Virus genome (UHGV): UHGV-0247914
Strand: one strand, 5' to 3'
From: a virus
DNA: 10,208 nt
This document shows positions 1-10,208 of the stretch, piece by piece. Within the stretch, counting starts at the first letter, position 1. Every line of letters begins with the position of its first letter. The notes below the pieces were generated by a model. It was not told the DNA's origin, ran no database searches, and worked only from the letters and a program-made list of their open reading frames with translations. The translations under genes were made by a program, and so were the position numbers.

Positions 1-4
1 CATA

Positions 5-30
5 TCACTCTCCTTTGATGCGAATGCCAG
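5..30. repeat. Copy 1 of a 26-bp direct repeat at the 3' end of a gene (junction module)
   Basis: tcactctcctttgatgcGaatgccag at 5-30 matches 499-524 with one mismatch. On the minus strand it encodes the C-terminal I-x-I-K-G-E, the TGA stop and an AAGGAG that serves as RBS for the next gene. Confidence 0.85.
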
Positions 31-496
31 TGGTACTCATTCTCCTGATTTCCCAGAGCACACGAGGAACACCACCGTTTCCGACCGGATCGCGTTTACT
101 CCGCAGGGCGACGCTTGATTCCGCCCAGCTTTTTCTTGGAGGAAGCTCTTTCACACGAACAAAACCAGCTGCGCGGAGAGATGCTCCTGATTCATCTGCC
201 TGGGTGTACGTAATACAACGTTGATAACCCATAGCCTTTGCTGCCCGCCAGACAGCACCATAAAGCGCGCTGTTAGCGTTGCGTTCTCCTGTGGTACATG
301 TGCGATTTACTTCAAGCGTTAATCCATCGTCCAAATGTCGTGCAACAGGTCTACCGGCTGTCGCCACACCTATCAATTCTCCGGCATCATTTCTCAGACC
401 AATGCTGAATTTATGCCCCACCGGGGGTTTATTGTGTCGGTGATGTCTGGATATAAACGCCTTCGCAACACGAAGAGTAACCGGTGAAATCTGCAC
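5..496 (-). CDS. Hypothetical protein, possibly GNAT-fold acyltransferase-like; C-terminus ...GIRIKGE
   Basis: The ORF track gives 5..517 with a TTG start. An in-frame GTG at 494-496 sits 7 nt after an AAGGAG (complement of 504-509) and is the more likely start. Stop is TGA at 5-7. Central region (…TLEV…SALYGAVWRAAKAMGY…SGASLRAAGF) loosely resembles an acyl-CoA N-acyltransferase core; this is from memory, not a search. Confidence 0.5.
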   Translation of the reverse strand: MQISPVTLRVAKAFISRHHRHNKPPVGHKFSIGLRNDAGELIGVATAGRPVARHLDDGLTLEVNRTCTTGERNANSALYGAVWRAAKAMGYQRCITYTQADESGASLRAAGFVRVKELPPRKSWAESSVALRSKRDPVGNGGVPRVLWEIRRMSTTGIRIKGE

Positions 497-498
497 TC

Positions 499-524
499 TC
501 ACTCTCCTTTGATGCAAATGCCAG
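499..524. repeat. Copy 2 of the 26-bp direct repeat (junction module)
   Basis: tcactctcctttgatgcAaatgccag; 25/26 identical to 5-30. Encodes ...GICIKGE, the stop, and the RBS for the gene at 5..496. Confidence 0.85.
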
Positions 525-1170
525 CGACGCGTGGCACATTAACTTCCACGATGCGCACAGTTGGTTTGTACATCTCAATCGCTGTCAGCCAGTCAGCGCC
601 AGTCATGCGCTTTTCTGCATCGCCATTAGTCCACTTAACCGGTACACCAATAGCCTTCATCGCTATTTCTATTTCCCCGGCGATGGCGCTTTTTCCGCAA
701 CCAGTAAAACCAGAAACAACGACAAGAACTTCACCTTTGGCTGGTTTTATTTCCCGTGCTTCCAGTTCAGCAATACTTACGCATATCTCTGCGCCTCTAA
801 TCAGCCCCGGAACGTTCTTGTTTGGCCCAACTTCACCATCGACAAAATCAATCATCGCGTTACGAGCCATATCCACACCCTGCGCCCGCACTTCAGCAAG
901 GGAGGCGTCGGTGGCTGGGGTTTCCGTGAAGTTGTCCTCCCAACCGTAGTACTCCTGACGACAGAAGTTATTAAATTCCTTCTCCGACTGTTTAAGCCCC
1001 GCATTCTCCGCTGCCAGCGCATTAGCACGCACCAGTTGCACTTCCAGTTGCGTTGCCAAATCGCTGATCAGCTTTGCCACACTGCGCATATCAACGGCAC
1101 CACATTCTGCTTTCAGTTCCGAAGCCATCTCATGCCCGGCGGCAACTAACCCTTTGATATTACTTTCCAT
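499..1170 (-). CDS. Hypothetical protein with a predicted coiled-coil N-terminus and a Walker-A-like motif (GFTGCGKS)
   Basis: 223-aa ORF with ATG at 1168-1170 and GAGGG 5 nt upstream on the minus strand. The N-terminal third looks coiled-coil-like by eye. GxxxxGKS occurs about 70 residues from the C-terminus. Ends ...ICIKGE, sharing the junction repeat. Confidence 0.6.
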   Translation of the reverse strand: MESNIKGLVAAGHEMASELKAECGAVDMRSVAKLISDLATQLEVQLVRANALAAENAGLKQSEKEFNNFCRQEYYGWEDNFTETPATDASLAEVRAQGVDMARNAMIDFVDGEVGPNKNVPGLIRGAEICVSIAELEAREIKPAKGEVLVVVSGFTGCGKSAIAGEIEIAMKAIGVPVKWTNGDAEKRMTGADWLTAIEMYKPTVRIVEVNVPRVAGICIKGE

Positions 1171-1231
1171 CTTTACCCTCGCTTATCCACATAACTTATT
1201 GATTACACTGATAACTAAAAAGATCGTCGAT

Positions 1232-1576
1232 TCAGAACTCTTCGATGTTCCAGCCACCACCTGCTTTCTTTGGTTTAACCGTTACCCCGATGATTCGGAA
1301 CGGATACTGATCTGCGGCGACTTTGGTTTTCACCCTGGCGTCGTCGGTCCAGAAACCTTTCACTTCGTGCAGTTCCATCTCGCCGGTGGCGAGCATCACA
1401 GCAAAATCGGGCGTATAGAACGTGTTGTCAGCTAACCGTAGCTTGATACCCTCGAATCGATACCAGGCGATTTCCCCTGCACGTTTACGAAGCTCAAGGT
1501 GCTGGCAATACGCAGATTCTGTTTTGTTCATCTGGCCTGTTTTGAGTCGACCAAGAGCCTGTATCTGTTTTCTCAT
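1232..1576 (-). CDS. Small protein with a PD-(D/E)xK-like motif (possible VRR-NUC-like nuclease)
   Basis: 114-aa ORF with ATG at 1574-1576 and AGGGG 6 nt upstream. Contains TPDF...ELHEVKG, resembling a PD...E-x-K nuclease core. First gene after the P terminator. Confidence 0.55.
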   Translation of the reverse strand: MRKQIQALGRLKTGQMNKTESAYCQHLELRKRAGEIAWYRFEGIKLRLADNTFYTPDFAVMLATGEMELHEVKGFWTDDARVKTKVAADQYPFRIIGVTVKPKKAGGGWNIEEF

Positions 1577-1579
1577 GAT

Positions 1580-1594
1580 TTACCCCTGAGGTAA
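1580..1594. promoter_or_regulatory. Operator-like palindrome TTACC-CCTGA-GGTAA
   Basis: Perfect inverted-repeat half-sites TTACC/GGTAA with a 5-bp spacer. Overlaps the RBS region of the gene at 1232..1576. Confidence 0.5.
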
Positions 1595-1635: not shown

Positions 1636-1663
1636 ATTTTATTACCTAGCAGGTAATTATCAA
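1636..1663 (-). promoter_or_regulatory. Putative sigma70 promoter for the accessory cassette, with the operator in its spacer
   Basis: Minus strand: -35 TTGATA (complement of 1658-1663), 16-bp spacer, -10 TAAAAT (complement of 1636-1641). The spacer is the palindrome at 1642-1656. Confidence 0.4.
1642..1656. promoter_or_regulatory. Operator-like palindrome TTACC-TAGCA-GGTAA
   Basis: Perfect half-sites; with flanks aTTACCtagcaGGTAAt. Lies between the putative -35 and -10. Confidence 0.5.
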
Positions 1664-1668
1664 GACGT

Positions 1669-1690
1669 AAAAAAATGCGCTATCGCGCTG
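1669..1690 (-). terminator. Weak intrinsic terminator after the P homolog
   Basis: Minus-strand RNA GCGC-GAUA-GCGC (4-bp GC stem) followed by AUUUUUUU, immediately after the TAA stop at 1694-1696. Confidence 0.35.
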
Positions 1691-1693
1691 GTA

Positions 1694-2479
1694 TTACTTG
1701 ATAAATCCTGCCGCCTTTCCCCGCCTGTATTCCTCCATCAGCCACTGCGCCGGTGTTATTCCCCCCAGGGTAGCGGCGTTAGGCATACACCCGAAACTTC
1801 GCCCTGGTGGATGGTAAACGTCTCTCCCTGTGTCCGGAGGCGTACTCATGGGTTCTGGCTTTGCCTGTATGCTGATCACCGGATCGGGTATCTGCTGTCC
1901 GGAAGCCACCTTTTTCGCCCAATCATCGAGCAGCCTGCGCGCGTGTTTCTCAACCTCAATCTCGCTAAGCTGGCGCTGATACATTGCACGGCGGGTATCA
2001 CATACGACCCAGTACATAACCGGATGTCGCCACGGGAATCTTTCGGGACCACCAGGATATAAACTTTTTTCCTTGCTGTACCGGTGAAACTCCGCCATCA
2101 CATCGTCAATGGTGACGCCAAGAACCATCTTGCTGTCTTTACACCACTTGATGAATTGCCCTGGCGACGGCCAGAACGGAGACTCACTGGCGCGGGCGTG
2201 GCGCATACCAGCAGAAACCTGTTCACGGGTTCGGATCCCCCCTTCGGCAAACGCAGCAATCCACTGCTGTTTTGCAGCGACTTCCTGCTCTGGCGTCTTC
2301 AGGTTGGTTACCACTGCCGCCGGAAACAGTTGTTTCAGCTGTTTGAAAAGGGCATCAACAAGCCTCTCTGCTGACATGTTCACCACGTTGTCATTGTTGG
2401 TGTACTGATGCTCATAACCTGACATGCGAGAAAGGGCTTCTCCGTCACGGTTTTGTATCGCGGTAAAAACGTTGTTCAC
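1694..2479 (-). CDS. P: Replication protein P homolog (lambda P-like DnaB helicase loader)
   Basis: Central region QQWIAAFAEGGIRTREQVSAGMRHARASESPFWPSPGQFIKWCKD matches my recollection of lambda P (RRQWVLAFRENGITTMEQVNAGMRVARRQNRPFLPSPGQFVAWCRE). The ORF track starts at ATG 2492-2494, but GTG at 2477-2479 has GGAGGA 6 nt upstream and overlaps the upstream TGA as GTGA, so it is preferred. Confidence 0.85.
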   Translation of the reverse strand: MNNVFTAIQNRDGEALSRMSGYEHQYTNNDNVVNMSAERLVDALFKQLKQLFPAAVVTNLKTPEQEVAAKQQWIAAFAEGGIRTREQVSAGMRHARASESPFWPSPGQFIKWCKDSKMVLGVTIDDVMAEFHRYSKEKSLYPGGPERFPWRHPVMYWVVCDTRRAMYQRQLSEIEVEKHARRLLDDWAKKVASGQQIPDPVISIQAKPEPMSTPPDTGRDVYHPPGRSFGCMPNAATLGGITPAQWLMEEYRRGKAAGFIK

Positions 2480-3267
2480 AAGAAATCCTCCCATGCTTCA
2501 GGGCTGTTCCAGTGCGGAACGTTGTTATCAGGTAATGTTGATTGCTTCTGTCTGCTAATCTGCAGCCGCCTTGCCAGCTTCTGCTCCCACTGTGCCTGAT
2601 GGTATGCCTTACCCTCAGCCATCCAGTAAATTCTGAACTCTGCAAGTTCCTGTGCCGTTGGCAGACTGTCCAGGTAGATCCCCTGCAATGAGCTTTTCCG
2701 AAGAAAGTCATCTGATGGCTGCCATTGTTCATGCATGACAAATTTGCCTAATTGCCCTGGCCCACCAGGAGGAACAAAGTTATTCATCACGGCGTTGTTT
2801 GCGCCGGGGTCATGAGGCACAGAATCCCCGCTTTTTGTCCTGCTCTCCCTCTCTTGGTTAAATGACTGGTTATATGACTGGTTCTGGATCCCGTTTTTGG
2901 GATCATTCAACATCCCGTTTTTGGGTATATTCCCGTTTTCGGGTATATTCCCGTTTTCGGGTTCATTGCCCCACTCCCGGTTGCCTTTAATGTTCCCGTT
3001 TTTGGTTATATTAAGAGAGAAAACCCGCACTCTTTTTGTCGCTCCCTTTCTCTCTCCGGTATCTGAAATAAGCCCCATTTTCATGAGCGATATAAGCCCG
3101 GCCTGCACGGTTTTTTTATTCAGGCAAGTGTCTTTAACGAGGCGTTCTATGCTGGGGTAGCAGAGGTTATATTCATCGGCTCTGTCAGCCATCGAGAGCA
3201 GTATGAGCTTTAATGATGAGCTACCTGGATCTGTCTCCCAGGCCCAATCTGTTGCATGTCTGCTCAT
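2476..3267 (-). CDS. Replication initiator protein (lambda O-like functional analogue)
   Basis: 263-aa ORF with GGAG 8 nt upstream of ATG 3265-3267. N-terminal region looks like a winged-helix/HTH DNA-binding domain. A low-complexity NGNIPENGNIPKNG linker is encoded by DNA iterons. Sits directly upstream of, and coupled to, the P homolog. Confidence 0.75.
   Translation of the reverse strand: MSRHATDWAWETDPGSSSLKLILLSMADRADEYNLCYPSIERLVKDTCLNKKTVQAGLISLMKMGLISDTGERKGATKRVRVFSLNITKNGNIKGNREWGNEPENGNIPENGNIPKNGMLNDPKNGIQNQSYNQSFNQERESRTKSGDSVPHDPGANNAVMNNFVPPGGPGQLGKFVMHEQWQPSDDFLRKSSLQGIYLDSLPTAQELAEFRIYWMAEGKAYHQAQWEQKLARRLQISRQKQSTLPDNNVPHWNSPEAWEDFL
2889..3012. repeat. Iteron array inside the initiator gene (putative replication origin)
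   Basis: Five copies of TCCCGTTTT(T/C)GG(G/T)T at 2889, 2913, 2931, 2949 and 2994, mostly followed by ATAT. Copies 2-4 are spaced exactly 18 bp apart. Flanked by a TGACTGGTT x2 repeat (2863-2884) and a polypurine/polypyrimidine, moderately AT-rich stretch (3013-3060). Confidence 0.7.
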
Positions 3268-3483: not shown

Positions 3484-3564
3484 GGTAAGCCCTGTTATTA
3501 GTATTGGGATTACGGTTATTTTGTGCTGACACAAAAAAAAGATCAACCAGATTTGGTTTTTTAT

Positions 3565-3579
3565 TACCTTTGAGGTACG
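3565..3579. promoter_or_regulatory. Operator-like palindrome TTACC-TTTGA-GGTAc (one mismatch)
   Basis: Same TTACC-N5-GGTAA architecture, just downstream in the minus-strand transcription direction of the terminator at 3580-3612. Confidence 0.4.
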
Positions 3580-3633: not shown

Positions 3634-3864
3634 TCATGAGTAGAAGAAGTATGCCAGTTCCGCTTTTGAGCGCAGCCATTGTCTTGTTTTACAGGCTTTA
3701 AAAAGCCCATTCATCAATACCTTACCTGGCATTTTGCGCTTACCTGTTAAGTGAGTCTGGATATAGTGACTCGTCGTTCCGGCTTCCTGTGCGAAGGCTT
3801 CACGCTCATCCGGAGTAAGTGCAAGCCAGTGCTTTTTGAAATCGAAATGTCCGTTATCGCTCAT
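3634..3864 (-). CDS. Cro-like HTH regulator (YdaS-like), first gene of the minus-strand early operon
   Basis: 76-aa ORF with an HTH-like segment (LTPDEREAFAQEAGTTSHYIQTHLTGKRKMP). Divergent from the repressor across the operator region. Confidence 0.7.
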   Translation of the reverse strand: MSDNGHFDFKKHWLALTPDEREAFAQEAGTTSHYIQTHLTGKRKMPGKVLMNGLFKACKTRQWLRSKAELAYFFYS

Positions 3865-3889: not shown

Positions 3890-3918
3890 ATAATAAATAT
3901 TCACCCATAAGGTAACAA
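3890..3918 (-). promoter_or_regulatory. Putative PR-like promoter for the cro-like operon
   Basis: Minus strand: -35 TTGTTA (complement of 3913-3918), 17-bp spacer, -10 TATTAT (complement of 3890-3895). The palindrome at 3901-3915 lies in the spacer. Confidence 0.4.
3901..3915. promoter_or_regulatory. Operator-like palindrome TcACC-CATAA-GGTAA (one mismatch)
   Basis: First of three sites in the divergent intergenic region, phased like an OR1-OR2-OR3 cluster. Confidence 0.45.
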
Positions 3919-3948: not shown

Positions 3949-3963
3949 TTACCTGTTGGGTAA
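3949..3963. promoter_or_regulatory. Operator-like palindrome TTACC-TGTTG-GGTAA (perfect)
   Basis: Site of the cluster nearest the repressor gene. Confidence 0.5.
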
Positions 3964-4018: not shown

Positions 4019-4603
4019 ATGAAAAGTATCCAGGACGTCCGCAGGCAAAATCTCAACGACTTGATCGACCGTGAATTCAATGGTGTTCAGACGCGGATGG
4101 CAGAAAAACTTGGAACTCAGGCAAATCTGGTAAACCGCTGGGCTCTTGGCAAGAAGGTTATCGGCGACCAGGTTGCGCGAAAAATTGAAGCTGCCGCCAA
4201 TAAACCCCGTAACTGGCTTGATATCGATCGCTCGCTTTCTCAGGAAGGTTTTCAGCCTGTCGGCCCAAGCGACATTGGTCAGCTGGCAGCTCACAACCTG
4301 GAACGCTGGATGAGTGAAAGCCGCGACCTTTCAACTCAGGGAAAACTTCACCGCGCATCCGGCGTCGCCCAGGTGACAATCAGTCGCCTGTTAAACAATG
4401 AGGTCAGCGTTTCCATTTCCACCCTGGAGAATGTTGCATCCGCATTCGGGCGTCACGGATATGAACTACTGATTCACCCGCACGACCCTGCGACTATCAA
4501 CTATGACCGCTCGCGCTACGCATTGTTACCCGAAACCGAGAAAGCAAAGATCGAAAGTTACATTGAATTTGTCATCAACCAGAACGAAAAAAACAAACAA
4601 TAA
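4019..4603 (+). CDS. Repressor-like regulator with two HTH domains (CI position)
   Basis: 194 aa. HTH 1 is about residues 20-70 (TRMAEKLGTQANLVNRWALGKKVIGDQVARKIE); HTH 2 is about residues 110-150 (HRASGVAQVTISRLLNNEVSVSISTLENVASAFG). No S24 peptidase (LexA-like) motifs were seen. First ATG has no good SD within 5-10 nt. Confidence 0.7.
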   Translation: MKSIQDVRRQNLNDLIDREFNGVQTRMAEKLGTQANLVNRWALGKKVIGDQVARKIEAAANKPRNWLDIDRSLSQEGFQPVGPSDIGQLAAHNLERWMSESRDLSTQGKLHRASGVAQVTISRLLNNEVSVSISTLENVASAFGRHGYELLIHPHDPATINYDRSRYALLPETEKAKIESYIEFVINQNEKNKQ

Positions 4604-4660: not shown

Positions 4661-4675
4661 TTACCTAATGGGTAA
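4661..4675. promoter_or_regulatory. Operator-like palindrome TTACC-TAATG-GGTAA (perfect)
   Basis: With flanks aTTACCtaatgGGTAAt; 20 bp upstream of the -35 of the PL-like promoter. Confidence 0.5.
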
Positions 4676-4694: not shown

Positions 4695-4723
4695 TTGACA
4701 TCAAACCAAATACGCATAATTAT
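4695..4723 (+). promoter_or_regulatory. Putative PL-like promoter for the recombination/integration operon
   Basis: Consensus -35 TTGACA at 4695-4700, 17-bp spacer, -10-like AATTAT at 4718-4723. The palindrome at 4723-4737 abuts the -10 and covers the start region. Confidence 0.5.
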
Positions 4724-4737
4724 TACCTCAACGGTAA
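4723..4737. promoter_or_regulatory. Operator-like palindrome TTACC-TCAAC-GGTAA (perfect)
   Basis: Overlaps the -10/+1 region of the PL-like promoter. Confidence 0.5.
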
Positions 4738-6992: not shown

Positions 6993-7241
6993 ATGAAAGG
7001 TGCATTAGATAAGAAGAAACTCCTGGCGGTGGTGCCACTGTCATGGAGCACTATCGACCGTATGGAGCGCGCAGGTGAATTTCCTAAACGCTGGTATATC
7101 ACTGACAAACGCTGCGCATGGAACCGTGACGAAGTTGAGCGTTGGCTTGATGAACGTCAGGCAGCAAGCCCGGCAGAGTTCCAGGGTAAAAAGCCTCCTG
7201 TTCAGCAACGTGTATATCGTCCTGTGAGAAACGCTGCATGA
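6993..7241 (+). CDS. AlpA-family phage regulator / excisionase-like HTH protein
   Basis: 82 aa with AGAGAGG RBS. Pattern LSWSTIDRMERAGEFPKRWYITDKRCAWNRDEVERWL fits the AlpA family signature (S-x-ST ... G-x-FP ... R-x-x-W ... EV-x-x-W). Confidence 0.75.
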   Translation: MKGALDKKKLLAVVPLSWSTIDRMERAGEFPKRWYITDKRCAWNRDEVERWLDERQAASPAEFQGKKPPVQQRVYRPVRNAA

Positions 7242-7350: not shown

Positions 7351-7650
7351 GTGAGAAAGTTAAGCCGACTTGAAAAATATCACATGAACAAGGTTTCAAT
7401 GCGCCGTCCTTCAAAGGTTATCGCCGTTACTCCTGCGGCGATAGAGATCGAAAAACGCGCGATTGAAAGAGAGAAAAAAGGGCAGTTCCGCATTGCCGCT
7501 CACCTTTGGCTTCAGTGTATGGATGTTGCTTCTGGTGATGTTGAACGTGCAAGGATCGCGGTTCGCAGGGACCAATGTATCACAAAAGGTAACGGCCTTC
7601 GCCGTGGCGACTATAGCGGCATAGGATGTTGTGGGGTGGTTTATGACTAA
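7351..7650 (+). CDS. Small regulator-like protein, tentatively PerC/ANR-like
   Basis: GTG start at 7351 with AGAGGG 9 nt upstream; an alternative ATG is at 7384. GQFRIAAHLWLQCMDVASGDVERARIAVRRDQC resembles the helical hairpin of PerC/ANR-type proteins, from memory only. Confidence 0.45.
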   Translation: MRKLSRLEKYHMNKVSMRRPSKVIAVTPAAIEIEKRAIEREKKGQFRIAAHLWLQCMDVASGDVERARIAVRRDQCITKGNGLRRGDYSGIGCCGVVYD

Positions 7651-8293
7651 GAAATACACACTAATCTATGCAGATCCACCCTGGGTATACCGGGACAAAG
7701 CCGCAGATGGTAATCGCGGTGCCGGTTTTAAATATCCGGTTATGAGTGTGCTGGATATCTGCCGCCTTCCTGTGTGGGATTTGGCCGATGAAAACTGTCT
7801 GTTGGCCATGTGGTGGGTGCCAACACAACCACTCGAAGCACTAAAAGTTGTTGAAGCCTGGGGATTCCGTCTGATGACGATGAAGGGCTTCACGTGGATA
7901 AAATGTGGTAGTCGACAACCAGATAAACTGGTTATGGGTATGGTACACATGACTCGCGCCAATAGTGAAGATTGCCTGTTTGCGGTAAAGGGAAAACTAC
8001 CTACGCGCATTAATGCAGGGATCGTTCAGTCATTTACCGCACCGCGGCTTGAGCATTCAAGAAAGCCAGATATCGTTCGTGAAAAACTTGTGCAATTATT
8101 AGGCGATGTTTCTCGCATTGAACTGTTCGCCCGCCAGACGTCTCATGGCTTCGATGTTTGGGGTAATCAGTGCGAAGACCCGGCAGTGCAACTACACCCT
8201 GGATACGCGTTGGATATCGGCGGATTAACAAATGCATTCAGCAATGCTCCGCTGTCACCAACAGACAACCAGGGGCGGGAGCGTGCAGCATGA
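7643..8293 (+). CDS. MT-A70-family N6-adenine methyltransferase
   Basis: DPPW motif in [14 protein letters not shown] near the N-terminus. Preferred start is ATG 7643 (GGGGTGG upstream); the track's GTG 7631 adds four residues. Stop overlaps the phosphatase start as ATGA. Confidence 0.8.
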
Positions 8294-8949
8294 ACCTATA
8301 TCAACGCATCAATGGCGCTGACTGGTGCAATATCTTCGTCGTCGGCGATCTGCATGGGTGCTACACGCTGCTGATGAACGAACTCGACAAAGTTTCATTC
8401 GACCCGGCGCGCGATTTGCTTATTTCCGTTGGTGACCTTGTTGACCGCGGCGCTGAAAACGTCGAATGCCTGGATTTGATTACTATGCCGTGGTTCCGAG
8501 CTGTTCGTGGCAACCATGAGCAGATGATGCTGGATGCACTGGTCAACGGCGGAAGTTTCGGACATTGGATGTCAAACGGCGGTGGATGGTGGCACCAACT
8601 TGATTCTGAGCAGGATGTGCAACTCAAATACCTTCTGCCAAAGGTTACCAACCTCCCGATGATTATCGAACTGGTTACCGGCAATAAGAAGGTCGTCATC
8701 TGCCACGCAGACTACCCGCACAACGAATACGCATTCGATAAGCCAGTACCGGAAGAAATGGTGATATGGAATCGTGAGCGGGTTAGCGACGCGCAGGACG
8801 GTATTGTCTCGGAGATAACCGGTGCCGATTTGTTCATCTTCGGTCATACGCCAGCACATCACCCACTGGTGTATGCAAACCAAATGTACATCGACACCGG
8901 CGCAGTGTTCTGCGGAAATCTGACGCTTACCAAAGTCCAGGAAGGATAG
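8290..8949 (+). CDS. Ser/Thr protein phosphatase, lambda phosphatase (PPP family) homolog
   Basis: GDLHGC, GDLVDRG and GNHE metallophosphoesterase motifs. Near-colinear with lambda phosphatase as I recall it, with 18 residues before GDLHGC in both. The track's 8170 start is an in-frame upstream extension. RBS GGGAG. Confidence 0.9.
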
Positions 8950-8951
8950 AA

Positions 8952-10208
8952 TTATTTATTACTGTCTTCCATCCACTTCTCAAACTTCGACGGGGAGAAC
9001 GGAATCAGATCCGTATGCTCCCCGTTAATCCAGGAATCAATCATATCGGCCCACTGCTGCAACATGTAGGCGCGCTGTCTGGCGTATTCCGCTTTGTTAT
9101 ATACGGCGCGCACACCTTTCTGCTCGTGTGCCAGAGCCTTTTCAATCCAGTCTGAAGGATAACCAGCCTCATGCAACAATGTACTGGCTGTACGGCGCAT
9201 ATCATGTACAGTAAAATCCTGAATATGCTCACCATCTTCATTTATTATTTTCACCGTTCTGTCGATCAGAGAGTTCAGCGCGGCATTAGATAATGGCTTC
9301 CGGAAATTGTAACGACCAGGAACCAGATATTCACTTCCACCAGCGCACATCTGCAACCCGACTAATATATCCTGTGCCTGTTTAGGCAGGTAAATAACGT
9401 GCGCCCGACTTCCCTTCATGCGGTCTGAAGGAATTGTCCATGTCCATTTTTTAAAATCTATTTCATCCCACGTTGCATTGGTGAATTCTCCCTTACGAAC
9501 CATGGTGATAAGCACCAGCTTTAAAGCCATTTTCATAGTGCCCATAGCACCAATGGCATCCAGCGTGCGGAAGAACAGGCCAATTTCTTCTGGTGTCAGT
9601 GTTCGCTCTCGTGGTTTAAATATGGCGATAGACGAAGGTTTAATGTCAGCCGCAGGATTAAACAAACCATGACCACGGTCATTGGCGTGACGGTATACGC
9701 TGCTGATGATCTCCCTGGCCTGTACTGCTGTTGCCCGACCACCGCGTTCGACAATCCGGTCACACAAATCACGAACCATTGATGTGGTAATTTCAGCCAT
9801 CATTTTGTTGCCAAGAACCGGAAGTATGTCACGGTCGATCACCGCCTGCTTCATTGCGCGGGTACTGTCAGCCAGGATGACGTGTTTCATATAACTGTCG
9901 GTATGTACCGCAAACGTCTCGGCACCACGAATCTTTTTAATACCGTCACGTTTAGCCGCAGCCGGTGACTGGCCTGCTTTAAGCAGCTTCTTTGCAGCAA
10001 TCAGTTCTTCTCGCGCTTCTGCCAGGCTGATACCGTCACGCCCATACTGCCCGATTACCAGTGTTTCGCGGCGACCGTTGATACGGTAGTCATAGCGAAA
10101 CGAGACCGTGCCTGACGTAAGCACAGCTACATACAGCCCGTCACGATCGGAGACCTTGTACAGTTTGTCCTGCGGCTTGAGGTTTTTTAATTTTGTATCG
10201 GTAAGCAC
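8952..10208 (-). CDS. int: Tyrosine integrase, P4-type; N-terminus at the window edge
   Basis: 418-aa ORF running to the last base of the window. Begins VLTDTKLKNLKPQDKLYKVSDRDGLY, typical of P4-family integrases. The C-terminal half has an R...HxxR...Y catalytic-domain layout (HDMRRT, ALAHEQKG, VYNKAEY). Convergent with the phosphatase gene with a 2-bp gap. Confidence 0.9.
   Translation of the reverse strand: MLTDTKLKNLKPQDKLYKVSDRDGLYVAVLTSGTVSFRYDYRINGRRETLVIGQYGRDGISLAEAREELIAAKKLLKAGQSPAAAKRDGIKKIRGAETFAVHTDSYMKHVILADSTRAMKQAVIDRDILPVLGNKMMAEITTSMVRDLCDRIVERGGRATAVQAREIISSVYRHANDRGHGLFNPAADIKPSSIAIFKPRERTLTPEEIGLFFRTLDAIGAMGTMKMALKLVLITMVRKGEFTNATWDEIDFKKWTWTIPSDRMKGSRAHVIYLPKQAQDILVGLQMCAGGSEYLVPGRYNFRKPLSNAALNSLIDRTVKIINEDGEHIQDFTVHDMRRTASTLLHEAGYPSDWIEKALAHEQKGVRAVYNKAEYARQRAYMLQQWADMIDSWINGEHTDLIPFSPSKFEKWMEDSNK

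Follow-up and report, generated by a model that had tools for sequence, protein, structure and literature searches.

The window analysed here is a stretch of viral DNA of 10,208 nucleotides (UHGV virus genome UHGV-0247914), and the subject of this work is the group of three small genes at its left end. All three are encoded on the minus strand: gene 1 (1232..1576, ATG start, 114 aa) encodes a DUF1064 protein, gene 2 (499..1170, ATG start, 223 aa) encodes a modular protein that resembles the Ea22 proteins, and gene 3 (5..496, GTG start, 163 aa) encodes a very basic protein of the XF1762 family with an isoelectric point (pI) of 10.9. Each belongs to a family that has a name (DUF1064, Ea22-like and XF1762/Mom-like) and assorts independently of the others; together they do not form a dedicated system. 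In the explanation that best covers the data as a whole, to which a probability of about 0.6 is given, the trio would be the start of a mosaic accessory region behind the replication genes (a DnaT-like O and a lambda-type P), in which three independent genes, with the roles and the regulation proposed below, have been juxtaposed by recombination at short conserved gene-junction sequences. A sequence-only reading of the same DNA had placed three open reading frames (ORFs) at these coordinates, where all three are indeed present; each has many homologues, so they are real genes and not chance ORFs. That reading had also proposed that they make up an uncharacterised three-gene system. This is not supported, as the trio is not co-inherited, its families have already been named and no match to a known defence system was found in PADLOC. 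As a system, the trio is of no importance, being an ordinary accessory stretch of a mosaic prophage. The XF1762 protein, on the other hand, is a useful lead.

The window is part of an Escherichia coli prophage of the phiV10/epsilon15 type (genus Uetakevirus) with a lambda-like organisation. In megablast searches, the left 1.7 kb matches E. coli prophages, phiV10, the O157 typing phages 9 and 10 and their relatives, in which this region consists of P, a variable set of small genes and then the terminase. Among 5426 complete E. coli genomes, a single one covers the 1.7-kb trio as such to at least 80%, and XF1762 genes are found in 154 of these genomes (2.8%; 20 plasmid copies included). The surroundings of XF1762 were surveyed at two levels. 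The first survey comprised 80 viral contigs from a single-protein scan, in which the XF1762 gene is 81-100% identical to gene 3. The P-loop module that forms the C-terminal part of gene 2 lies directly upstream in five of these loci, and DUF1064 occurs within the upstream flank (up to 5 kb) in nine. The genes immediately upstream in 76 loci form 28 clusters, mostly of different Ea22-like mosaics, and the commonest downstream neighbour is an unrelated protein of 87 aa. Neighbours were clustered at 80% coverage; low-coverage single linkage merged the mosaic Ea22-like proteins into a meaningless super-cluster. The second survey comprised 113 diverse metagenomic viral loci from 64 XF1762 clusters (median identity 53%), which were found using a degenerate DNA pattern for GRPVARxLDDG. 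Here, 728 neighbouring ORFs were distributed over 582 clusters, none of which was present in more than 5 of the 64 XF1762 clusters, and XF1762 was always a stand-alone gene. No conserved partner gene of XF1762 was found in either the 80 close or the 113 diverse loci.

These counts bear directly on the reading of the trio as one functional, co-regulated system, in which modification, nuclease and NTPase functions would serve anti-restriction, a toxin or defence. The genes are adjacent, lie on the same strand, are tightly packed or translationally coupled and stand behind a single operator-flanked promoter. Restriction-modification-like systems are known to combine a modifying enzyme with a nuclease and an NTP-binding protein, as the trio would. 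Against this stand the co-occurrence counts, by which the reading is largely refuted, and the relatives that carry an S-adenosylmethionine (SAM) methyltransferase and hypothetical proteins between the genes. In addition, a search of PADLOC-DB 2.0 returned no hit for genes 1 and 3 and one meaningless hit for gene 2 (E 0.023), and the chimera that constitutes gene 2 is itself very rare. Taken together, a single system is very improbable.

The mobility of the individual genes is also visible in their locations. A 100%-identical XF1762 gene is found in the ea region of a different prophage, beside xis/int, and a plasmid of approximately 96 kb carries a copy with 99.4% identity. The occurrence of the XF1762 region on plasmids indicates that this accessory region is exchanged between integrated prophages and plasmids. 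XF1762 genes with Ea22-like, DUF551 and ASCH neighbours were also seen on plasmids of 42-96 kb (e.g., E. coli pB2C_96); pB2C_96 additionally encodes a HumD translesion-polymerase subunit and a homolog of DNA polymerase III theta.

Candidate recombination joints are visible at the gene junctions in the window. A direct repeat of 26 nt occurs at 5..30 and again at 499..524. The first copy comprises the codons for the ...GIRIKGE* end of gene 3 together with the Shine-Dalgarno sequence of the next gene, and the second those for the ...GICIKGE* end of gene 2 with the Shine-Dalgarno sequence of gene 3. The two copies are identical at 25 of 26 positions and share an exact core of 16 nt, for which 0.01 occurrences are expected. 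Many unrelated upstream neighbours of XF1762 genes also end in ...GIKGE, ...IRIKGE or ...GIKEESE. Judged from these sequences, the repeat at the ends of unrelated genes likely marks a recombination boundary for the shuffling of modules.

Gene 3 starts with GTG, 2 nt past the stop codon of the preceding gene and behind an AAGGAG Shine-Dalgarno sequence, and the same 492-nt coding sequence is called by RefSeq in relatives, where the identical sequence is named 'XF1762 family protein'. The protein matches the NCBIfam equivalog model NF045478 (XF1762) with 204.5 bits (cut-off 50, E 5.7e-61) and PHROG 1384, 'Mom-like DNA modification protein', with 3.9e-42; Mu Mom belongs to the same PHROG. The family is large (5663 clusters at 90% identity, 3313 at 50%) and is found in phages of Actinobacteria, Cyanobacteria and Proteobacteria. 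Members occur in the Escherichia phages Kapi1 (a 92.6% homologue) and PhiR44_2 (100%), in Pectobacterium phage ZF40 and in Burkholderia phage phi1026b, all of them cultured, in phages of Streptomyces, Microbacterium, Synechococcus and Pelagibacter and in prophages of Mycobacterium abscessus (55% identity). A tblastn search with XF1762 against 50,697 phage records matched 32, with lambda and P22 not among them. The sequence-only reading had guessed a GNAT/Mom-like fold for this protein, a guess that agrees with the PHROG assignment and with structure prediction and comparison. The AlphaFold2 (AF2) model, built from 64 sequences, has a mean predicted local distance difference test (pLDDT) score of 90.1 and shows a GNAT core fold. 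In a Foldseek comparison of this model, Mom has the highest query-normalised TM-score (0.71) and the second-best E-value, and the matches in a viral structure library include the Mom of a Salmonella phage, proteins of the Mom-plus-endonuclease type and a polyvalent protein that contains an ART domain. The label itself also proved to be in use already: several phage homologs of XF1762, including those of ZF40 and phi1026b in RefSeq, are annotated as 'Mom-like DNA modification protein'.

The relationship between XF1762 and Mom is visible through profile-profile and structure comparison only. Direct BLASTP of gene 3 against Mu Mom (E 0.25) and the XF1762 hidden Markov model (HMM) against Mu Mom (3 bits) gave no usable similarity, and phmmer and profile searches with XF1762 against the sequences in the PDB found nothing. 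When the XF1762 profile was aligned with a Mom alignment of 42 sequences using hhalign, an E-value of 3.3e-4 was obtained over 118 columns. Of 64 diverse XF1762 members, 47 match Pfam Mom at E <= 0.01, no other Pfam family is matched by any of them and some close homologs of gene 3 have a precomputed hit to this family, PF25680. The hhalign alignment pairs H19, E62, R65, N73 and S76 of XF1762 with H58, E108, R111, N121 and S124 of Mom, respectively. R65 is invariant and S76 is conserved in at least 90% of the 64 members.

These pairs are of interest in light of recent work on Mom. It has been shown that Mom moves glycine from Gly-tRNA(Gly) onto N6 of adenine in double-stranded DNA, which in 2026 made it the first enzyme shown to use a charged tRNA for DNA modification, and that R111, S124 and R151 are essential (PMC13219725). 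The helix-turn-helix (HTH)-like insertion at approximately residues 175-209 is essential as well, as its deletion abolishes activity (PMC13219725). Gene 3 thus has counterparts of two of the essential residues, R111 and S124, in its R65 and S76. An earlier mechanism from 2020, in which Mom was proposed to use acetyl-CoA and iron (PMC7261163), has been superseded by the tRNA mechanism; the residues of the 'iron triad' in that proposal are not conserved in XF1762.

Several observations speak against reading gene 3 as a Mom enzyme. The hhalign probability for XF1762 and Mom is 38%, and the score of gene 3 against Pfam Mom, 22.6 bits, is below the gathering cut-off of 27.1. The essential R151 of Mom has no counterpart and aligns to Gln99, and in gene 3 Mom residues Y59 and Y159 are replaced by Arg20 and Leu107 and the dimerisation residue W48 by Arg9. 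The HTH-like insertion is absent, and in its place a linker of 26 residues (119-144) with pLDDT values of 61-65 lies between beta-6 and beta-7. The match of gene 3 to PHROG 1384 covers profile positions 20-159 of 245, ending well before that of Mu Mom (7-218). Mom D149 aligns to a gap; E102, which is conserved in at least 90% of the members, lies in the same loop, so the equivalent of D149 is uncertain. The two families differ in further respects. XF1762 proteins have 163 aa, in contrast to the 241 aa of Mu Mom (PF25680, PDB 8bv8; product 6-NcmdA), and lack the N-terminal extension and the basic C-terminal tail of Mom; pairwise identity is only about 10-12%. The XF1762 gene lies in the early accessory region and has no com-type translational control, whereas mom lies at the late end of the genome. 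Membership of XF1762 in Pfam Mom is therefore borderline, as would fit a sister clade. XF1762 retains the equivalents of R111 and S124 but neither the insertion nor the other active-site residues, and it is thus a sister family of Mom, not Mom itself, with an active-site Arg/Ser scaffold as the common feature. Without the insertion and several active-site residues, it must act differently from Mom.

How it would act can be proposed with some reserve. The most likely activity of gene 3 is the transfer of an acyl or aminoacyl group onto a nucleic acid, which would shield phage DNA from host nucleases; the chance that this is right lies somewhere below even odds and reaches them at best. Circumstantial indications for a nucleic-acid substrate are the high pI, rare fusions with DNA methyltransferases and the very high conservation across phyla, with approximately 55% identity between members from E. 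coli and from a Mycobacterium prophage. Partners in the rare fusions of XF1762 are DNA methyltransferases of the D12 and C5 types, polyvalent-protein domains and a PAPS-reductase domain. In the metagenomic loci, apparently long XF1762 ORFs turned out to be start-codon artefacts and were rejected as fusions. A more specific version of this proposal is that XF1762 represents a large clade of 'short Mom' enzymes, without the HTH insertion, that install a nucleic-acid modification other than 6-NcmdA from an acyl or aminoacyl donor. This is possible, if on the doubtful side. If true, 'short Mom' would be a widespread and so far unseen anti-restriction chemistry in Kapi1, ZF40 and phi1026b.

Some evidence weighs against a nucleic-acid substrate. 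The DNA-methylase fusions are singletons, seen on 1-3 contigs each, and C5-methylase and PAPS-reductase genes lie within four genes on either side of XF1762 in 7 and 10 of the 113 diverse loci, respectively, numbers that have no baseline, so no enrichment is claimed. Among viral structures, the ART-containing polyvalent protein is one of those that match gene 3 most closely, and protein substrates have been predicted for phage GNAT domains that adjoin ART domains (Iyer et al. 2017; PMC5512222). The main rival for gene 3 is accordingly a protein or small-molecule acetyltransferase that uses acetyl-CoA, acts on a host factor and is a distant cousin of Mom without action on DNA. The fold of gene 3 matches RimI, NatA and PAT/BAR nearly as well as Mom, and its beta4-alpha3 loop, R-N-A-N-S-A, is nearer to the CoA pyrophosphate motif R/Q-x-x-G-x-G/A than is the corresponding R-N-S-E-S-R of Mom. 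A domain with 38% identity occurs in the ART-containing polyvalent protein, to which the prediction of protein substrates would apply, the homologs in M. abscessus prophages are annotated as 'acetyltransferase' and the DNA-binding insertion of Mom is missing. In contrast, none of the 64 members matches a Pfam acetyltransferase family, Mom being the only match, and the general-acid Tyr that is typical of alpha-4 in GNATs is a Leu in XF1762. The Arg that is invariant in XF1762 is kept in Mom homologs and not across GNATs (PMC7261163), and the rare fusion partners include DNA methyltransferases. On balance, an acetyltransferase of this kind is unlikely. It has also been considered that XF1762 could be a GNAT toxin of the TacT/AtaT type that acetylates charged tRNA and halts translation, in abortive infection or host takeover. 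The size of approximately 160 aa, the GNAT fold and the strong positive charge resemble the tRNA-acetylating toxins, and Mom itself binds tRNA (PMC13219725); still, this reading has very little chance of being correct.

Transfer to a nucleic acid remains the preferred reading for gene 3. The protein has value as a lead: XF1762 is a much larger, stand-alone sister family of Mom in which the essential Arg and Ser are kept. Since several easily grown phages carry XF1762, a new DNA modification would be directly testable.

Gene 2 consists of two modules. The N-terminal module (residues 1-132; 775..1170, minus strand) is acidic (pI 4.5), probably helical and of the phrog_492 type, as residues 1-135 match phrog_492 with 1.2e-46. 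The C-terminal module (residues 133-223 plus the stop codon; 499..774, minus strand) is a mini P-loop domain and matches phrog_11761; neither PHROG has an assigned function. The first 60 or so residues are shared with an 'eae-like' family in related loci (cluster cl7, 189 aa), and in the annotation of phiV10 an eae-like protein, PhiV10p46, directly follows the DUF1064 gene. A coiled coil had been suggested for gene 2 and is not borne out: a crude heptad score was reached by 187 of 500 shuffled sequences and is thus not significant, and a Pfam coiled-coil hit was weak (E 0.021).

The C-terminal 91 residues are carried by 833 protein clusters, nearly all with 97-99% identity, and are fused to many different N-termini, mostly bona fide Ead/Ea22 domains (PF13935). 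The presence of the same module on many N-termini indicates that it is swappable among Ead/Ea22-like proteins. The exact 223-aa chimera was found on three contigs only in an index of 153 billion genes, always in an identical arrangement, and gene 2 is therefore a recent recombinant. Distant copies of the module (30-42% identity over the aligned segments) were observed within larger proteins of betaproteobacterial phages, such as gp37 of Burkholderia phage BcepC6B and proteins of 346-420 aa in Burkholderia and Ralstonia jumbo phages; the host proteins of the module measure 199-420 aa overall and are otherwise unrelated.

The GxxxxGKS motif proposed for gene 2 is found as GFTGCGKS at 688..711 (minus strand) and is invariant in the distant homologs. 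From E. coli to the Burkholderia and Ralstonia phages, the invariant residues are G154, G157, G159, K160 and S161 (GxxGxGKS), W180, E186, W194 and E209. A profile of the module matches almost exclusively P-loop NTPases in the PDB, with the nucleotide-binding domain of an ABC transporter as the best match (E 6e-4), and also designed minimal 'phosphate-loop' proteins. The invariance of the Walker A and these profile matches show that the motif is real and under selection. As in P-loop NTPases and the designed proteins (PDB 6c2u, 9jix), the GxxGxGKS motif follows a hydrophobic beta strand, and this arrangement is kept among homologs. A later hydrophobic strand, RIVE, is closed by the invariant E209 in a Walker-B-like position, and in size the core is comparable to the designed prototypes. 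It differs from natural P-loop NTPases, which have at least about 150 residues and five or more strands, in that its conserved stretch comprises only about 70 residues. No Pfam family covers the mini P-loop module above threshold, and a domain definition of its own may be warranted.

Based on these sequence features, the C-terminal module (approximately 70-90 residues) probably binds a nucleotide or another phosphate ligand, and it may be a minimal phosphate-loop domain of natural origin with a nucleotide signal as its ligand. Two points count against this assignment: the conserved part is far shorter than any characterised P-loop NTPase, and the AF2 model of the module, built from near-identical sequences only, has a pLDDT of 43.9 and is unusable. 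A minimal conserved P-loop module would have a bearing on protein evolution and is of specialist interest.

The likeness of gene 2 to Ead/Ea22 proteins is one of architecture. Close relatives are named 'ead/Ea22-like' by RefSeq, the C-terminal module is joined to PF13935 N-termini in hundreds of proteins, and a hypervariable accessory location and a modular swap architecture are common to both. Lambda Ea22 and its family are modular early proteins that combine a coiled coil with a short domain at the N-terminus and a variable one at the C-terminus (PMC10834534). The N-terminal module of gene 2 differs in being of the phrog_492 type; gene 2 gave no hit to PF13935, the Ead_Ea22 N-terminal domain, at E <= 0.1, and its C-terminal module gave no match at E <= 10 to the sequence of the nuclear magnetic resonance (NMR) structure of the C-terminal domain of lambda Ea22. 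In the proposed arrangement, the variable N-terminal part would bear a swappable C-terminal effector module, and by analogy with lambda Ea22, gene 2 may tune the lysis-lysogeny decision.

For gene 1, a PD-(D/E)xK-like protein had been predicted, which is in line with the database matches. The protein matches the Pfam family PF06356 (DUF1064) with 31 bits (cut-off 24.7) and phrog_190, 'Holliday junction resolvase', with 7e-43, and DUF1064 was placed in the PD-(D/E)XK superfamily in 2005 (PMC1189080). Among the sequences in the PDB, T7 endonuclease I and Bax1 are the only matches. Pairwise BLASTP with T7 endonuclease I (gene 3 of T7) gave 41% identity (E 1e-6) over ...YTPDF...E.KG.W..D.R.K...., with D57, E71 and K73 of gene 1 aligned to D55, E65 and K67 of the T7 enzyme. 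These three residues, together with an upstream Glu (E20 or E28), are the candidate catalytic residues. At the level of sequence, gene 1 is a small PD-(D/E)XK nuclease that resembles T7 endonuclease I, a Holliday-junction resolvase of the same superfamily (PDB 1m0d/1fzr). Both proteins are small and basic, and their catalytic cores align. The T7 enzyme, at 149 aa, is longer than gene 1 (114 aa), which has no equivalent of its C-terminal part and belongs to a separate Pfam family, DUF1064; where the first catalytic Glu of gene 1 lies is uncertain.

The first gene to follow P, gene 1, is conserved, and approximately 1000 of the 5426 complete E. coli genomes match the part that comprises DUF1064 and P. 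A Holliday-junction resolvase function is predicted from the label of PHROG 190 and the similarity to T7 endonuclease I. As a predicted structure-specific nuclease, gene 1 most likely cuts branched replication or recombination intermediates, a role that is taken by Rap/NinG or RusA in lambda-like phages. No biochemistry of DUF1064 was found in the literature searched. The statement in the sequence-only reading that the trio contains no recognisable lambda nin gene holds, as no Nin family (NinB/Orf, NinG/Rap, NinH, etc.) was found among the Pfam, PHROG and NCBIfam matches of the three proteins. Its three guesses at folds were good ones, since the nuclease, P-loop and GNAT assignments agree with the family scans and the model of gene 3; neither homology to characterised nin proteins nor an absence of the guessed folds, either of which it had said would count against it, turned up.

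The separate regulation that had been suggested for the three genes is only partly confirmed. The stretch between P and gene 1 contains, besides a terminator-like hairpin and a promoter-like site, two palindromes that resemble operators. The hairpin (1669..1688, minus strand) follows P and consists of a GCGC stem, a GAUA loop, a second GCGC stem and seven U; in the annotation of phiV10, a rho-independent terminator is present at the equivalent place. The promoter-like site of the sigma-70 type, TTGATA-16-TAAAAT (1636..1663, minus strand), is located upstream of the DUF1064 gene. One palindrome, TTACCTAGCAGGTAA (1642..1656), lies between the -35 and -10 hexamers, and the other, TTACCCCTGAGGTAA (1580..1594), lies just upstream of the start codon of the DUF1064 gene. 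They are 62 bp apart and bracket the promoter-like site and the ribosome-binding site of gene 1.

Palindromes of this 15-bp type, TTACC-N5-GGTAA, occur seven times in the window, where 0.14 are expected. A copy with one mismatch (3564-3578) lies just downstream of the cro-like gene, two copies (3901-3915 and 3949-3963) lie in the divergent region between cro and the repressor gene and two more (4661-4675 and 4723-4737) lie after the repressor gene, where they bracket a TTGACA...CATAAT promoter; this last pair (4661, 4723) is also 62 bp apart. This layout recurs in phiV10 and in two other relatives, where the arms of the palindromes are conserved and their centres vary. These sites are probably immunity operators for the repressor or Cro, and with putative operators at its front, gene 1 would head a third repressor-controlled early transcription unit. 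Transcription would restart after the terminator-like hairpin from the promoter flanked by the two palindromes, and the lysogen would not express the three genes, which would be turned on early during lytic growth. Weighing against this scheme, the hairpin is weak (fold -8.4 kcal/mol, z -1.7), the promoter is a consensus match only (10 of 12 positions; one site in the region, where 2.3 are expected in shuffled sequences) and the operator assignment is made from position alone. A third operator-flanked promoter would have a bearing on the regulation of phiV10-type phages and is of specialist interest.

The operators also bear on whether the trio could be lysogenic-conversion genes, expressed from the prophage and excluding superinfecting phages. 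Accessory 'moron' regions of prophages often hold exclusion genes, a habit that would suit such a role. So would the behaviour of lambda Ea22, which favours lysogeny (PMC7093339, PMC10834534). The palindromes of immunity type overlap the promoter of the unit, however, which predicts repression in the lysogen and argues against defence or exclusion functions expressed there. In addition, the unit lies in the direction of the early lytic transcript, after O and P, and PADLOC gave no hit, which makes lysogenic conversion highly unlikely. Expression early in lytic growth remains the preferred reading for the unit.

The remaining genes of the window are consistent with its lambda-like organisation. 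The minus strand carries the lambda-type P gene (1694-2494), the DnaT-like O gene (2476-3267), the cro-like gene (3634-3864), which is divergent from the repressor, and the integrase gene (8952-10208). The 194-aa repressor, with dual HTH, is encoded on the plus strand (4019-4603). At the other end of the trio, a gene downstream of XF1762 begins at the edge of the window, with its ATG at 3..1 and the AAGGAG junction in front; in contig L136, which has the same arrangement, its product is a 171-aa protein without a recorded Pfam hit.

An early-left operon on the plus strand encodes a DUF3799 PDDEXK exonuclease, RecT, AlpA-like and PerC-like regulators, an MT-A70 methyltransferase and a Metallophos phosphatase. 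The AlpA-like regulator is encoded at 6993-7241 and the PerC-like transcriptional activator at 7351-7650, both on the plus strand; PerC homologs are activators of virulence genes in enteropathogenic E. coli (EPEC). The MT-A70-family methyltransferase (7631-8293, plus strand) has a DPPW motif (Pfam 1.5e-21) and lies near the integrase; with this gene, the prophage already has a separate candidate DNA methyltransferase. Directly before the integrase lies a calcineurin-like metallophosphoesterase gene (Metallophos, 1.2e-15; 8290-8949, plus strand). Its Pfam family is that of the Ser/Thr phosphatase of lambda, which is encoded in the nin region in lambda; here, the gene is found at the opposite end of the early region.

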